Shown here: one piece after another, positions 15,624-52,796 of the stretch | How the letters are laid out: the number at the start of each line of letters is the position of its first letter | Numbering within the stretch: position 1 is the stretch's first letter | NCBI RefSeq assembly: GCF_013122565.1 | Contig: NZ_CP053258.1 | DNA length: 64,000 nucleotides | Direction: 5' to 3' (one strand) | Source: Escherichia coli | GTDB taxonomy: Bacteria; Pseudomonadota; Gammaproteobacteria; Enterobacterales; Enterobacteriaceae | Notes under the pieces: model-generated | Database searches by the model: none | Told to the model about the DNA's origin: nothing | Seen by the model: the letters and a program-made list of their open reading frames with translations, nothing else | Translations under genes and position numbers: made by a program

Positions 15624-15878
15624 TCACATCTCGATTTCAATATCGCCTTTTGCCCGGCAACAACAGGGCAAAATTTCCCCCGGCTGAATAAAGGCTAACG
15701 GTTCGGCAATCCAGTCCACCTGACCTGCAACCAGGCGTGTGCGACAGGAGCCGCAGTAACCTTCGCGACACTGGTACTCAACCGCCACATTGTGGGATTC
15801 CAGCGCCGCCAGAAGAGAAGGGTGTTCATCCTGGCACAGCAGTTGTGTGCCAGTGATGCGCAGGGTAACGCGGGCCAT
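15624..15878 (-). CDS. yfaE: 2Fe-2S ferredoxin associated with ribonucleotide reductase
   Basis: 84 aa with CxxxxCxxC...C cluster; start overlaps nrdB stop by 1 nt. Confidence 0.88.
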   Translation of the reverse strand: MARVTLRITGTQLLCQDEHPSLLAALESHNVAVEYQCREGYCGSCRTRLVAGQVDWIAEPLAFIQPGEILPCCCRAKGDIEIEM

Positions 15879-17008
15879 CAGAGCTGGAAGTTACTCAAAT
15901 CGTCGGTGTCCACTTCCGCGTCAATCTGCCCGACCAGATAAGAACTGACTTCCACTTCCTGCGGAGCAACCTGCACGTTATCGGACACCAGCCAGGTGTT
16001 GATCCACGGGATCGGGTTGGAGCGAGTCTGGAACGGCAGATCCAAACCGACCGCCTGCATACGGATATTGGTGATGTACTCAACGTACTGGCAGAGAATG
16101 TCTTTATTCAGACCAATCATCGAACCGTCGCGGAACAGATAATCCGCCCAGTCTTTCTCCTGTTGAGCTGCCTGAACAAACAGGTCATAGCACTCCTGCT
16201 TACACTCTTCGGCAATTTCCGCCATCTCCGGATCATCTGCGCCGCTGCGCAGCAGATTCAGCATATGCTGAGTACCGGTCAGGTGCAGGGCTTCGTCGCG
16301 GGCAATCAGGCGAATAATTTTGGCGTTGCCTTCCATCAGTTCGCGTTCTGCAAAGGCAAAGGAGCAAGCAAAGCTGACGTAGAAACGAATCGCTTCCAGC
16401 GCGTTAACGCTCATCAGGCAGAGATACAGTTTTTTCTTCAGCTCGCGCAGGCTAACGGTTACGGTTTTACCGTTAACGGTGTGGGTGCCTTCGCCCAGAA
16501 GGTGCCAGTAGCTGGTCATTTCGATCAGTTCATCGTAATAGCTGGAGATCCCTTCCGCACGTTTCTGGATCTGCTCGTTGGTGACGATATCGTCAAACAC
16601 AACAGACGGATCGTTAATGATATTACGAATGATATGAGTATAGGAGCGGGAATGAATCGTTTCTGAGAACGCCCAGGTTTCGACCCAGGTTTCCAGTTCC
16701 GGGATCGAGATCAGCGGCAGCAGTGCCACGTTCGGGCTACGACCCTGAATGGAGTCCAGCAGCGTCTGATATTTCAGGTTGCTGATAAAGATGTGTTTTT
16801 CGTGTTCAGGCAGTGCCTGGTAATCGATACGGTCGCGAGAAACGTCAACTTCTTCCGGACGCCAGAAGAAAGAGAGCTGCTTTTCGATCAGCTTTTCGAA
16901 GATGTCATATTTTTGCTGATCGTAGCGAGCCACGTTGACCGGCTGACCAAAAAACATCGGTTCTTTAAGCTGATCATTTTTCGTCTGTGAAAAAGTGGTA
17001 TATGCCAT
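15878..17008 (-). CDS. nrdB: Class Ia ribonucleotide reductase beta subunit
   Basis: 376 aa, R2 family. Confidence 0.95.
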
Positions 17009-19382: not shown

Positions 19383-19458
19383 GTATGTCGTACCTGTTTT
19401 TGGAATTCTTTCCGCAATAGTTTCATGCAGACTACCTGTAGTACGGGAGGCTGCTTAG

Positions 19459-19506
19459 AACACTATATATAGGGGGTATGTTTGGGATTCACTGCAAGAT
19501 AGTGTG
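19459..19506 (-). promoter_or_regulatory. Two NrdR-box-like palindromes in the nrdAB promoter/leader
   Basis: cactatatatag core at 19461-19472 and cactgcaagatagtgtg at 19490-19506, centres about 31 bp apart. Confidence 0.5.
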
Positions 19507-19535
19507 AAAATGGCCCTCTTGCAAGTGCATAACTT

Positions 19536-19544
19536 TGTGGATAA
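19536..19544 (-). promoter_or_regulatory. DnaA box (TTATCCACA on minus strand)
   Basis: Perfect 9-mer upstream of the nrdA promoter region. Confidence 0.5.
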
Positions 19545-20077
19545 CTCAGGAAGGAAAAAGTGGCTTTCGCGCACCTTAGGTCAGACAAGGTGTCCGGGAA
19601 AGTCAATGGGAAGAGAAAAATTTGTTAAAAATAACTGTTCGGCGATTTCTTGAACGGCAGAATAGGTTGGATAAATTGATATAGATGGTTTATTAATCTT
19701 TTTGCTAATGATTGCAAAAATTGATCTAAGCACGAGTCATCACATAATCTGATGTATCAGTTGTGGTCAATATATAAGCGAATGTAAGCGATTGTTGATG
19801 TCGAAATGGTTGTTTTCTATTCGGTTGTTGTTAAATGCTAAGCCATTTTGTTAATTTACCTTATATTATAAGAAAATTATTGATTACTTTAATTCAGTTT
19901 AAATATAACTGATATCCCTAAAGGTTATTAACTTGAATTATGACGCATTGATATTATTCATCAAATAATAACAAAATAGCCATTGCACCGCGTTGAACAA
20001 TTTACAAAAGAAAGAAAAACCTTATTGCATAATACGTTTAAATACGCCGTCTTATATAAAATGATGGTCAGATTAAT

Positions 20078-23000
20078 ATGCGAGTTATCTTTCTACGCAA
20101 GGAGTATTTATCTTTACTCCCGTCAATGATTGCGTCTCTCTTCTCAGCTAATGGCATTGCGGCAGTCACTGATTCATGCCAGGGATATGATATCAAAGCG
20201 AGTTGCCAGGCCAGCAGGCAAAGCCTTTCAGGCATTACGCAGGACTGGAGTATCGCCGATGGGCAATGGCTGGTTTTTTCGGATATGACCAATAACGCCA
20301 GCGGTGGGGCCGTATTTTTGCAACAAGGAGCGAAATTTACATTATCACCAGAAAACGAAACTGGAATGACTCTGTTTGCCAATAACACCGTTACAGGAGA
20401 ATATAATAACGGCGGGGCCATATTTGCTAAAGAAAACTCAACGCTGAATCTTACTGATGTTATTTTTTCCGGTAACGTCGCAGGCGGCTATGGTGGCGCA
20501 ATCTATTCTTCTGGTACTAATGATACTGGTGCCGTCGATTTAAGTGTCACTAACGCCATGTTTCGCAATAACATCGCTAATGATGGCAAAGGTGGCGCAA
20601 TTTATACCATTAATAATGACGTCTATTTAAGTGATGTTATTTTTGATAACAACCAGGCATATACATCAACAAGTTACAGTGATGGCGATGGCGGGGCAAT
20701 CGATGTTACCGATAATAATAGCGACAGCAAGCATCCTTCAGGTTATACGATAATAAATAACACCGCCTTTACAAATAACACAGCCGAAGGTTATGGCGGG
20801 GCGATATATACCAATAGCGCGACGGCTCCCTATCTTATTGATATTTCTGTTGATGACAGCTACAGCCAGAACGGCGGCGTGTTAGTCGATGAGAACAATA
20901 GCGCAGCAGGCTATGGAGAGGGTCCTTCCACTGCGGCGGGTGGCTTTATGTATCTCGGCTTAAGTGAAGTTACCTTTGATATTGCCGACGGAAAAACGCT
21001 GGTTATCGGCAATACAGAGAATGACGGAGCTGTTGACTCTATTGCTGGTACCGGGTTGATCACCAAAACAGGTTCCGGCGATCTGGTACTTAATGCAGAT
21101 AACAATGACTTTACTGGTGAGATGCAGATTGAAAACGGTGAAGTTATCCTGGGCCGCAGCAACTCACTGATGAATGTCGGAGATAGTCATTGCCAGGACG
21201 ATCCGCAACACTGCTACGGTCTGACGATAGGGAGTATTGATAAGTACCAGAATCAGGCAGAACTAAATGTTGGCTCCACCCAACAAACCTTTGTGCACTC
21301 ATTGACGGGCTTTCAGAATGGCACTTTAAATATCGATGCTGGTGGCAACGTTACTGTTAATCAGGGCAGTTTTGCTGGCACCATCGAAGGTGCTGGTCAG
21401 CTCACCATTGCGCAAAACGGCAGCTACGTGCTGGCAGGGGCGCAGTCAATGGCGCTAACTGGCGATATAGTGGTGGATGATGGCGCGGTGCTTTCGCTGG
21501 AAGGCGACGCGGCAGATCTTGCCGCTCTCCAGGACGATCCGCAGTCGATCGTGTTAAACGGCGGTGTGCTCGATCTCTCTGATTTCTCCACCTGGCAGAG
21601 CGGTACATCATACAACGATGGCCTTGAAGTCAGCGGCAGCAGCGGAACGGTTATCGGCAGTCAGGATGTGGTAGATCTTGCAGGCGGAAACGATATGCAT
21701 ATCGGCGGTGACGGGAAAGATGGCGTCTACGTGGTGGTGGATGCGGGCGACGGGCAGGTCAGCCTGGCAAATGACAATCAATACCTCGGCACAACGCAAA
21801 TTGCTTCCGGTACGCTGATGGTGAGCGACAACACGCAGCTTGGAGATACCCATTATAACCGCCAGGTTATCTTTACTGATAATCAACAAGAAAGCGTGAT
21901 GGAGATTACTGCCAATGTCGATACTCGTTCTACAACGGCTGAGCATGGGCGTGATATTGAAATGCGCGCCGACGGTGAAGTGGCAGTTGATGCGGGGGTA
22001 GACACGCAGTGGGGCGCACTGATGGCTGACAGCAGCAGGCAACATCAGGATGAGGGTAGCACATTGACTAAAACGGGGGCGGGTACACTTGAGCTGACCG
22101 CCAGCGGTACAACGCAGTCAGCGGTACGTGTCGAAGAAGGCTCCCTGAAAGGTGATGTTGCGGATATCTTCCCTTATGCTTCGTCGCTGTGGGTCGGTGA
22201 CGGGGCAACGTTCGTTACTGGCGCGGATCAGGATATTCAGTCAATTGATGCTACTTCCAGCGGCACTATCGACATCAGCGATGGTACGGTTTTGCGCCTG
22301 ACCGGGCAGGATACTTCCGTCGCCCTTAATGCCTCACTGTTTAACGGCGATGGGACGCTGGTGAATATCACCGATGGCGTGACGTTGACAGGTGAGCTTA
22401 ATACCAACCTTGAAACTGACAGCCTGACCTATCTTGCCGACGTGACGGTTAATGGTGATCTGACCAATACGTCCGGTGCGGTTAGCCTGCAAAATGGCGT
22501 CGTTGGCGATACGCTGACGGTAAACGGTGATTACACCGGCGGCGGTACGTTACTGCTCGACAGCGAATTAAACGGCGATGACTCAGCAAGCGACCAGTTG
22601 GTGTTGAACGGTAATACTGCTGGCAATACCACGGTTGTGATTAATCCCATTACAGGGATTGGTGAGCCGACATCTACAGGCATTAAAGTGGTTGATTTCG
22701 CAGCTGATCCCACGCAGTTTCAAAACAATGCGCAGTTCAGTCTGGCAGGCAGTGGCTACGTCAACATGGGAGCGTATGACTACACGCTGGTGGAAGATAA
22801 CAACGACTGGTATCTGCGATCGCAAGAAGTAACGCCGCCATCGCCACCTGATCCAGACCCGACTCCCGATCCTGATCCTTCGCCGGATCCTGATCCAACA
22901 CCCGACCCGGCCCCTACGCCTGCCTACAAGCCAGTGTTGAATGCCAAAGTTGGTGGATATTTTAATAACCTGCGGGCGGCAAATCAGGCGTTTATGATGG

Positions 23001-23830
23001 AGCGACGCGATCACGCTGGTGGCGATGGTCAGACGCTGAATTTACGTGTTATCGGCGGAGATTATCATTACACAGCAGCGGGGCAACTGGCTCAGCATGA
23101 AGACACTTCTACAGTGCAGCTTAGCGGCGACCTGTTTAGCGGGCGCTGGGGGGATAATGGCGAGTGGATGCTTGGGGCGGTTGGTGGCTACAGTGATAAT
23201 CAGGGCGACAGCCGCTCGAATCTGACCGGAACTCGCGCCGATAACCAGAACCACGGTTATGCCGTTGGGCTGACCTCAAGCTGGTTTCAGCACGGTAAGC
23301 AGAAGCAGGGGGCCTGGCTGGATAGCTGGCTGCAATACGCGTGGTTTAGCAACGATGTTTCCGAACAAGACGATGGCGCGGATCATTACCATTCGTCGGG
23401 AATTATTGCTTCTCTGGAAGCGGGGTATCAGTGGTTACCGGGGCATGGTGTGGTGATTGAACCGCAGGCGCAGGTGATTTATCAGGGCGTGCAACAGGAT
23501 GATTTTACCGCCGCTAACCATGCGCGCGTGTCACAATCGCAGGGTGATGATATTCAAACGCGGCTGGGTTTACACAGCGAATGGCGTACCGCTGTTCATG
23601 TCATACCAACATTAGATCTGAATTATTATCACGATCCGCATTTGGCAGAAATTGAAGAAGATGGCAGCACTATCAGTGACGATGCGGTGAAGCAACGGGG
23701 TGAAATAAAAGTGGGAGTCACGGGCAATATCAGTCAGCGAGTCTCGCTGCGCGGCAGCGTGGCGTGGCAGAAAGGGAGTGATGATTTTGCCCAGACGGCA
23801 GGGTTTTTATCGATGACGGTGAAATGGTAA
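20078..23830 (+). CDS. yfaL: AIDA-I-type autotransporter adhesin
   Basis: 1250 aa; N-terminal signal; repetitive Gly/Asn/Thr-rich passenger; Pro-rich PDPDPTPDP linker; C-terminal beta-barrel domain. Confidence 0.85.
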   Translation: MRVIFLRKEYLSLLPSMIASLFSANGIAAVTDSCQGYDIKASCQASRQSLSGITQDWSIADGQWLVFSDMTNNASGGAVFLQQGAKFTLSPENETGMTLFANNTVTGEYNNGGAIFAKENSTLNLTDVIFSGNVAGGYGGAIYSSGTNDTGAVDLSVTNAMFRNNIANDGKGGAIYTINNDVYLSDVIFDNNQAYTSTSYSDGDGGAIDVTDNNSDSKHPSGYTIINNTAFTNNTAEGYGGAIYTNSATAPYLIDISVDDSYSQNGGVLVDENNSAAGYGEGPSTAAGGFMYLGLSEVTFDIADGKTLVIGNTENDGAVDSIAGTGLITKTGSGDLVLNADNNDFTGEMQIENGEVILGRSNSLMNVGDSHCQDDPQHCYGLTIGSIDKYQNQAELNVGSTQQTFVHSLTGFQNGTLNIDAGGNVTVNQGSFAGTIEGAGQLTIAQNGSYVLAGAQSMALTGDIVVDDGAVLSLEGDAADLAALQDDPQSIVLNGGVLDLSDFSTWQSGTSYNDGLEVSGSSGTVIGSQDVVDLAGGNDMHIGGDGKDGVYVVVDAGDGQVSLANDNQYLGTTQIASGTLMVSDNTQLGDTHYNRQVIFTDNQQESVMEITANVDTRSTTAEHGRDIEMRADGEVAVDAGVDTQWGALMADSSRQHQDEGSTLTKTGAGTLELTASGTTQSAVRVEEGSLKGDVADIFPYASSLWVGDGATFVTGADQDIQSIDATSSGTIDISDGTVLRLTGQDTSVALNASLFNGDGTLVNITDGVTLTGELNTNLETDSLTYLADVTVNGDLTNTSGAVSLQNGVVGDTLTVNGDYTGGGTLLLDSELNGDDSASDQLVLNGNTAGNTTVVINPITGIGEPTSTGIKVVDFAADPTQFQNNAQFSLAGSGYVNMGAYDYTLVEDNNDWYLRSQEVTPPSPPDPDPTPDPDPSPDPDPTPDPAPTPAYKPVLNAKVGGYFNNLRAANQAFMMERRDHAGGDGQTLNLRVIGGDYHYTAAGQLAQHEDTSTVQLSGDLFSGRWGDNGEWMLGAVGGYSDNQGDSRSNLTGTRADNQNHGYAVGLTSSWFQHGKQKQGAWLDSWLQYAWFSNDVSEQDDGADHYHSSGIIASLEAGYQWLPGHGVVIEPQAQVIYQGVQQDDFTAANHARVSQSQGDDIQTRLGLHSEWRTAVHVIPTLDLNYYHDPHLAEIEEDGSTISDDAVKQRGEIKVGVTGNISQRVSLRGSVAWQKGSDDFAQTAGFLSMTVKW

Positions 23831-27602: not shown

Positions 27603-34449
<6,847 letters not shown>

Positions 34450-52313: not shown

Positions 52314-52796
52314 AACTACTGCGTTGTCAATTTTCTCTTCCGCCTTCCAGACGCGGTACTTCACATCCACATTGTCTGGCGTATACACCACGATCGGCAG
52401 CTTGCTGTTGTAACGCAGCATTCCGGCATCGCCCAGATACGCGGTGACAAATTTCCTCTCTTTCTTGCCATCCGGGCAGGCCATCATCGTGGAAACCGGC
52501 GAGCTACCTTTATCAAAGACATAATAATCATAGCCCCAGCCTTCCAGCGTTTTGCTTTCCAGCTTCCCGCCGAGACGATGCAAATTACAATCGACTTCCA
52601 GCGTCTGACCGATTAACAGTTCTACTTTCAGGGTAGATTCATCTTCTTGCGGGGTTAACTGAATCACCTGACGCTTCATGCCTTTTTCAGCTTGTGGATA
52701 AGGCGCGATTTTTTCCAGTGGCTGGACGCTCTCTGCCGCCCAGGCGGAAGTGGTGGCGAAAGCGGCAAACAATACTGCAGGTAGAATGGTCTTCAT
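52308..52796 (-). CDS. eco: Ecotin, periplasmic serine-protease inhibitor
   Basis: 162 aa from ATG 52796 ([20 protein letters not shown] signal peptide). Confidence 0.92.

Follow-up and report, generated by a model that had tools for sequence, protein, structure and literature searches.

The operators of Escherichia coli nrdDG and nrdHIEF consist of tandem 16-bp, partially palindromic NrdR boxes with 15-bp linkers. NrdR binding requires two boxes, the length of the linker being important but not its sequence, and the key positions of a box are C4, A6, A8, T9, T11 and G13 (bioRxiv 10.64898/2026.05.11.724285). Binding needs dATP plus ATP or ADP, and affinities are 138-160 nM for nrdDG and nrdHIEF vs 113 nM for nrdAB (PMC12176259). 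The nrdAB value is the KD of E. coli NrdR on boxes 1+2, with ATP+dATP or ADP+dATP (FEBS J 2025, Rozman Grinberg et al., PMC12176259), whereas boxes 0+1 are bound weakly, with a KD >6000 nM (PMC12176259). Boxes 0 and 1 form the classical nrdAB pair, and box 2 is a newly recognised downstream element (PMC12176259). Annotation of the classical pair is attributed to Rodionov & Gelfand 2005 and Torrents 2007, in so far as these are cited in PMC12176259 and bioRxiv 10.64898/2026.05.11.724285; according to the same two sources, box 0 covers the nrdA -10 and transcription start. The pair that forms the operator is in dispute: Sjoberg/Logan favour 1+2, and the Torrents-lab preprint keeps the classical pairs. 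Further accounts of the K-12 nrdAB promoter/operator are those of Tuggle & Fuchs 1986, Augustin et al. 1994, Torrents et al. 2007, Olliver et al. 2010 and Rozman Grinberg et al. 2025.

The second regulator of nrdAB is DnaA. It generally needs both halves of a double box at 2-3 bp spacing, and nrdA is among 16 DnaA ChIP-seq regions (PMC11317965). The nrdA peak is 14-fold over control and contains the double box gTTATCCACAaagTTATGCACTt; the whole K-12 genome has 32 perfect DnaA boxes (Stringer et al. 2024, PMC11317965). Double boxes of the DnaA regulon (polA, purH, mioC, DARS1/2; Stringer et al. 2024) likewise combine two 9-mers of the same orientation with 3-bp spacing. At nrdAB, DnaA-ADP or low DnaA-ATP at high-affinity boxes activates and high DnaA-ATP represses; a review also mentions a third, ATP-specific DnaA box and names Fis and IciA as regulators (PMC8203912).

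The window, i.e. the whole stretch of 64,000 nucleotides analysed here, contains the nrdAB control region at 19383-19560, consisting of the nrdA leader and core promoter on the minus strand. The identity proposed in the earlier note is borne out by the nrdA/nrdB/yfaL context and by E. coli loci with 99.8% identity: of 5,426 complete E. coli genomes, 5,425 contain a match to an 801-bp query that spans the site (best 99.8%), with nrdA, ypaB and yfaL annotated at the matching loci. In an annotated E. coli neighbour the gene order is ubiG, yfaL, nrdA, nrdB, yfaE, inaA. The region thus is the E. coli nrdAB promoter-operator, a well-described feature and as such an ordinary, already known finding. 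Its elements are listed in Table 1.

Table 1. Elements of the nrdAB control region and neighbouring genes in the window, in descending order of position.
Feature	Position	Strand	Sequence	Remarks
yfaL, divergent autotransporter gene	20078-23830	+		ORF list
AT-rich intergenic region, nrdA to yfaL	19601-20077			composition: 29% GC vs 52% in the window
Perfect DnaA box	19536-19544	-	TTATCCACA	9/9 to TTATNCACA; plus-strand string TGTGGATAA is the reverse complement
Promoter-proximal DnaA box	19524-19532	-	TTATGCACT	8/9 to TTATNCACA; abuts -35 with one-base overlap
-35 hexamer, candidate sigma-70 nrdA promoter	19519-19524	-	TTGCAA	read from sequence
NrdR box 0	19492-19507	-	TCACACTATCTTGCAG	5/6 key positions; 8.0 bits, rank 16/63,985; second palindrome
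-10 hexamer, candidate sigma-70 nrdA promoter	19496-19501	-	TATCTT	read from sequence; 17-bp spacer to TTGCAA
Box 0-1 linker, 16 bp	19476-19491	-	TGAATCCCAAACATAC	varied sequence, fixed length between species
nrdA 5' leader, ~107-110 nt	19383-19492	-		holds NrdR boxes 1 and 2; from -10 position and literature on box 0
NrdR box 1	19460-19475	-	CCCCTATATATAGTGT	6/6 key positions; 17.2 bits, rank 1/63,985; includes first palindrome
Box 1-2 linker, 15 bp	19445-19459	-	TCTAAGCAGCCTCCC	one base differs from K-12
NrdR box 2	19429-19444	-	GTACTACAGGTAGTCT	5/6 key positions; 11.4 bits, rank 2/63,985
nrdA CDS, class Ia ribonucleotide reductase alpha subunit, 761 aa	17097-19382	-		ORF list and RefSeq annotation, 99.8%-identical loci
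nrdB	15878-17008	-		follows nrdA (ORF list, RefSeq)

Boxes 0, 1 and 2 agree with the published K-12 sequences, as does the double DnaA box, and the -35 and -10 hexamers as placed here are identical in K-12. This strain differs from K-12 by two single-base changes, both outside the motifs: GGGCCAT instead of GGGTCAT in the promoter spacer, and GCAGCCTCCC instead of GCAGCTTCCC in the box 1-2 linker. The window sequence therefore deviates by one linker base from the oligo with boxes 1+2 used in the binding assays, and the published KD applies to that oligo.

RefSeq additionally annotates ypaB, a 47-aa ORF at 19510-19653 on the plus strand, opposite nrdA; both the double DnaA box and the nrdA -35 fall within it, and its 'conservation' probably stems from the underlying regulatory DNA. 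In the AT-rich part of the intergenic region (19601-20077), a consensus scan of both strands yielded eight promoter-like hexamer pairs vs 2.9 expected. Presumably this part holds the yfaL promoter together with published Fis, IciA and H-NS sites, and we take it to be the location of published cell-cycle elements as well. Jacobson and Fuchs reportedly tied, in 1998, a 45-bp inverted repeat to the cell-cycle control of nrdAB. A search for this repeat found only short AT-rich inverted repeats at 19861-19974, none of which matched the published element.

Three NrdR boxes were recovered with a weight matrix that had been trained on the four boxes of E. coli nrdDG and nrdHIEF only (oligos printed in PMC12176259) and made symmetric; the matrix is thus independent of nrdAB. 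The scan covered 63,985 positions of the window. Two imperfect palindromes about 31 bp apart had been noted before, CACTATATATAG at 19461-19472 and CACTGCAAGATAGTGTG at 19490-19506, besides the DnaA 9-mer TGTGGATAA at 19536-19544. All three strings lie exactly at these positions, and the spacing holds too: the centres of the palindromes are 31.5 bp apart in that register, and 32 bp apart, with a 16-bp linker, in the published 16-bp register. Both palindromes score above background and correspond to boxes 1 and 0. Box 2 is located inside the same span but had been missed. It is non-canonical, with a central AG and hence G at position 9, and its sequence recurs unchanged in the nrdAB_1,2 oligo of PMC12176259. 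In box 0, C replaces A at key position 6.

The centres of boxes 0 and 1 are 32 bp apart and those of boxes 1 and 2 are 31 bp apart, i.e. integer numbers of helical turns. Among the 127,907 possible pairs with 15-16 bp linkers in the window, 19429+19460 (boxes 1+2) ranks first with 28.6 bits and 19460+19492 (boxes 0+1) second with 25.2 bits, far above the third-ranked pair (10.7 bits). The palindromes are real and beyond chance, as confirmed by these ranks. The three boxes together span the stretch from 47 to 125 bp before the nrdA ATG (19382), a location expected for the promoter of an RNR operon. Key positions, 15-16 bp linkers, location, matrix score and conservation next to unconserved linkers all agree with an NrdR operator. 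The nrdAB operator differs from those of nrdDG and nrdHIEF in its three phased boxes instead of two, in the central AG instead of AT of box 2 and in the C at position 6 of box 0.

The candidate promoter, TTGCAA-17 bp-TATCTT, matches the sigma-70 consensus at 8 of 12 positions. A consensus promoter and terminator scan did not call it, since its cut-off was nine matches, and flagged mostly AT-rich sites nearer yfaL. The predicted start is at ~19489 by the geometry of the -10. The nrdA leader is said to measure 110 nt, a length attributed to Tuggle and Fuchs (1986), and the start would then be 19492. As far as can be told from literature and promoter geometry, transcription starts near the palindromes, box 0 overlapping both the -10 and the start. 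With the start taken at 19492, box 1 occupies ~ +18 to +33 and box 2 ~ +49 to +64.

Upstream of the promoter, the DnaA double box TTATCCACAaagTTATGCACT (19524-19544) is composed of TTATCCACA and TTATGCACT in the same orientation, separated by the 3 bp aag, and its sequence is identical to that of the published double box. It is unique in the 64 kb, i.e. one double box was observed vs 0.03 per shuffled window. Like other double boxes of the DnaA regulon it combines one perfect with one near-consensus 9-mer, and we see no substantive difference from them. The single 9-mer described previously is a genuine site, bound in vivo according to ChIP-seq (PMC11317965), but its second half TTATGCACT had been overlooked and both halves are needed. 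The perfect 9-mer occurs three times in the window vs 0.43 times in shuffles, 2% of which reach three. The two further copies (32880-32888 and 52693-52701) have the same orientation as the nrdA copy, are located within long ORFs and are unlikely to bind DnaA stably, because neither has a partner box. DnaA input to a cell-cycle regulation of nrdAB had also been proposed; DnaA does regulate the operon, but the proposal was overstated, as DnaA sets the level of expression and not necessarily its timing (PMC8203912).

Four E. coli alleles were compared. No variation occurs in boxes 0 and 1 or in the linker that joins them; the alleles differ in the promoter spacer, in the box 1-2 linker, at positions 1-2 of box 2 and, in one case, by a 13-bp deletion in the leader. 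Polymorphism of the box 1-2 linker is as expected, because the linker is constrained in length only. About 1,700 records fall into the 95-99% identity band for the nrdA upstream region. PA45B (L083) and some other E. coli are without the 13 leader bp CGGAAAGAATTCC (~19400-19412); the gap falls between box 2 and the ribosome-binding region, and positions 1-2 of box 2 differ as well.

Part of the nrdA promoter (19506-19554) is matched by 235 E. coli plasmid records. In the one plasmid examined (L082, 3001-3048), a 48-bp copy with ~92% identity comprises the double DnaA box, the -35 and the spacer. It is located just upstream of hot, a theta-subunit homologue, in a P1-like backbone, and similarity stops at the -10. 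A similar ypaB ORF fragment is recreated in this copy, probably because the same regulatory DNA is kept. The P1 record NC_005856 annotates 86399-86454 (L085, 714-769) as '94 pct identical to E. coli DNA region containing two predicted DnaA boxes'. A mobile copy of the nrdA promoter on plasmids was accordingly rejected; the segment belongs to the P1 family and is already annotated in the P1 genome record.

For comparison across the Enterobacterales, the first 150 residues of NrdA were used as query. This returned 80 loci from distinct species, 79 of which had an nrdA upstream region that was used in an ungapped alignment anchored on the best NrdR box. All six key bases of box 1 are present in 79/79 species. 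At the position of box 0, which precedes box 1 by 32 bp, or by 31 bp in two species, at least five of six key bases occur in 97% of the species, and no other offset shows such conservation of key bases among the 79. Within box 0, C4, A8, T9, T11 and G13 are each found in 77/79 species and position 6 carries the non-consensus C in 71/79, while positions 7, 10, 12 and 14-16 are variable, as is the sequence of the box 0-1 linker. Mean column conservation is 0.90 for box 1, 0.76 for box 0 and 0.58 for the linker. A full box 2 (at least 5/6 key bases at +31 or +32) was confined to E. coli, E. albertii, the MAG L011 and Rouxiella, and is thus, among these sequences, essentially limited to the Escherichia lineage. 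Its key bases are kept in E. albertii and L011 while linker and flanks diverge. Among 23 other species with an E. coli-type promoter, 17 keep only the left half-site CACTA at the box 2 position (+32 to +34).

Two promoter types are distinguished. In the E. coli type, box 0 contains the -10 TATCTT, conserved in all members, and the -35 is preceded by a TTATCCACA box; TTGCAA is kept in Serratia, Yersinia, Dickeya and Rahnella. It occurs in Escherichia, a Pseudocitrobacter-labelled MAG, Yersinia, Serratia, Hafnia, Dickeya, Brenneria, Rahnella and others. In the remaining E. coli-type genera, another 10 bp separate the perfect DnaA box from the -35 as compared with Escherichia, and for that reason the close 3-bp arrangement of the two DnaA boxes seems to be particular to Escherichia. 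The Salmonella type (Salmonella, Citrobacter, Klebsiella, Enterobacter, Kosakonia, Cedecea, Pantoea, Erwinia and others) shares boxes 0 and 1 in the same register with a 16-bp linker, as well as promoter-associated DnaA boxes. On the weight matrix, box 0 of Salmonella or Klebsiella reaches 11.2 bits, vs 8.0 in E. coli. In contrast to E. coli, the -10 TAGAAT of this type is immediately 5' of box 0, and a full box 2 and a DnaA box upstream of the -35 are lacking. Instead, a DnaA double box TTATCCACAgagTTAGTCACA is present in the leader directly after box 1, followed by a third, inverted TTATCCACA box ~46 bp downstream of the box 1 start. In Salmonella-type loci (L004-L081), DnaA boxes occur at +16 to +55 from box 1, and a weak DnaA box TTAGTCACA takes the position of the box 2 half-site (T)CAC(A/T)A.

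E. coli, E. albertii and the MAG L011 alone carry yfaL as an insertion between ubiG and nrdA; elsewhere the two genes are direct neighbours, ubiG first, with 350-600 bp between them. Distant yfaL-like genes (~43% identical) are present in L036 and L073. By its promoter type, Escherichia groups with Yersinia and Serratia, although Salmonella and Citrobacter are its closer relatives. This and the yfaL insertion hint at a replacement of the intergenic region by recombination.

With high confidence, we read the region as the nrdAB promoter-operator with a double DnaA box and three phased NrdR boxes, of which 1+2 form the strong pair. The tandem boxes put forward in the earlier note are the classical annotated pair, but NrdR hardly binds 0+1 (>6000 nM) and prefers 1+2 (113 nM); the upstream palindrome nevertheless is a conserved partner across the Enterobacterales. 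The earlier interpretation is therefore partly supported: locus and regulators were right, the DnaA site was half described, and the NrdR pair is the classical and not the high-affinity one. The 1+2 model is not general for the Enterobacterales, because most species have no full box 2. As to a possible in vivo role of box 0 in E. coli, the in vitro data speak against it, and the order-wide conservation and Salmonella genetics speak for it.

Somewhat more speculatively, the nrdAB operator was possibly three-site in its ancestral state, with box 0 weak but active in vivo, box 1 strong, and box 2 present in full or as a half-site; the DnaA sites would have been rewired between lineages and the Escherichia promoter replaced by recombination. 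Box 0 may then be deliberately weak, as suggested by the C6 in 71/79 species, and act as a cooperative or alternative partner, and it may be active despite its dismissal from binding assays with short oligos.

An operator made up of boxes 0 and 1, which would repress by direct occlusion of the -10 and the start and leave box 2 as an incidental sequence, we consider unlikely for E. coli. This arrangement is the second-ranked pair in the window, its upstream box is conserved at the fixed 16-bp linker in 97% of the 79 species, Salmonella-type promoters included, and most species are without a full box 2 although NrdR needs two boxes. Moreover, mutation of either classical box, the upstream one included, de-represses nrdAB of Salmonella in vivo (Panosa et al. 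2010, PMC2892513). However, the two KD values differ strongly in favour of 1+2, and earlier work with a 185-bp probe, as related in PMC12176259, found box 0 mutation without effect and binding abolished by box 1 mutation. The C at key position 6 of box 0 is unfavourable as well, a C6A change raising affinity 10-fold (bioRxiv 10.64898/2026.05.11.724285), and box 2 exceeds box 0 on the independent matrix (11.4 vs 8.0 bits).

It is likewise improbable that box 0 is just the -10 and start region, AT-rich with flanking C and G and NrdR-like by chance, so that only boxes 1+2 matter. TATCTT does fall within box 0, in vitro binding is negligible (PMC12176259), and AT-rich promoter cores inflate matrix scores, box 0 being merely rank 16. 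Yet the five positions kept in 77/79 species (4, 8, 9, 11 and 13) are five of the six NrdR key positions, whereas positions 7, 10 and 12, supposedly part of the -10, vary. The NrdR-like pattern also persists in promoters of the Salmonella type, in which the -10 precedes the box, and so the -10 alone does not explain the conservation of box 0. The 16-bp linker is fixed in length while its sequence drifts, and from the matrix scan the probability that a box reaching 8 bits or more is correctly spaced upstream of box 1 by chance is ~5e-4. Promoter or start-site function, instead of NrdR binding, could nonetheless account for part of the conservation of box 0.

An explanation at the RNA level, with the palindromes as leader hairpins affecting stability or translation and not as protein-binding sites in DNA, is very improbable and was rejected: boxes 1 and 2 are indeed transcribed (~ +18 to +64) and long nrdAB leaders matter in Pseudomonas aeruginosa according to PMC12528414, but the leader folds no better than shuffled sequences (-17.0 vs -16.4 kcal/mol, z = -0.17), the Rfam scan of the leader gave a sole, far sub-threshold match (IS605-orfB-I, 16 bits vs a gathering score of 94), box 0 is mostly upstream of the start, and what is conserved is the key positions for NrdR and a constant helical phase of the DNA, not base-pairing.

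For the promoter-operator with 1+2 as the strong pair, the following mechanism is proposed. The sigma-70 promoter would start a leader of ~110 nt, and a DnaA dimer on the double box directly upstream of the -35 would tune the recruitment of polymerase. According to the literature, RNA polymerase is aided there by DnaA-ADP or low DnaA-ATP, and is shut out as high DnaA-ATP spreads. When dNTPs are plentiful, an NrdR tetramer would be bound downstream of the promoter, at the downstream edge of the polymerase footprint, where it probably blocks open-complex formation or promoter escape. The weak but conserved box 0 would most likely be an auxiliary or alternative partner of box 1 that carries repression over the -10. 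DnaA binding, NrdR affinities and nucleotide dependence are taken from the work of others, motif significance, phasing and conservation result from this analysis, and the steric mechanism and the role of box 0 are what we infer.

The annotation of the window is hereby corrected to three NrdR boxes and a double DnaA box, instead of two boxes and a single 9-mer. The box declared non-functional in E. coli, box 0, is the one conserved throughout the order, and the new box 2 is, in its full form, essentially specific to the Escherichia lineage. What is non-trivial about this otherwise familiar locus is that conservation and binding data conflict for box 0, and that DnaA and NrdR sites were rewired in a lineage-specific manner. 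As nrdAB expression determines how much dNTP is available for replication, and efforts are under way to target NrdR with antibacterials, it matters which boxes are the true operator when this promoter is modelled or engineered.
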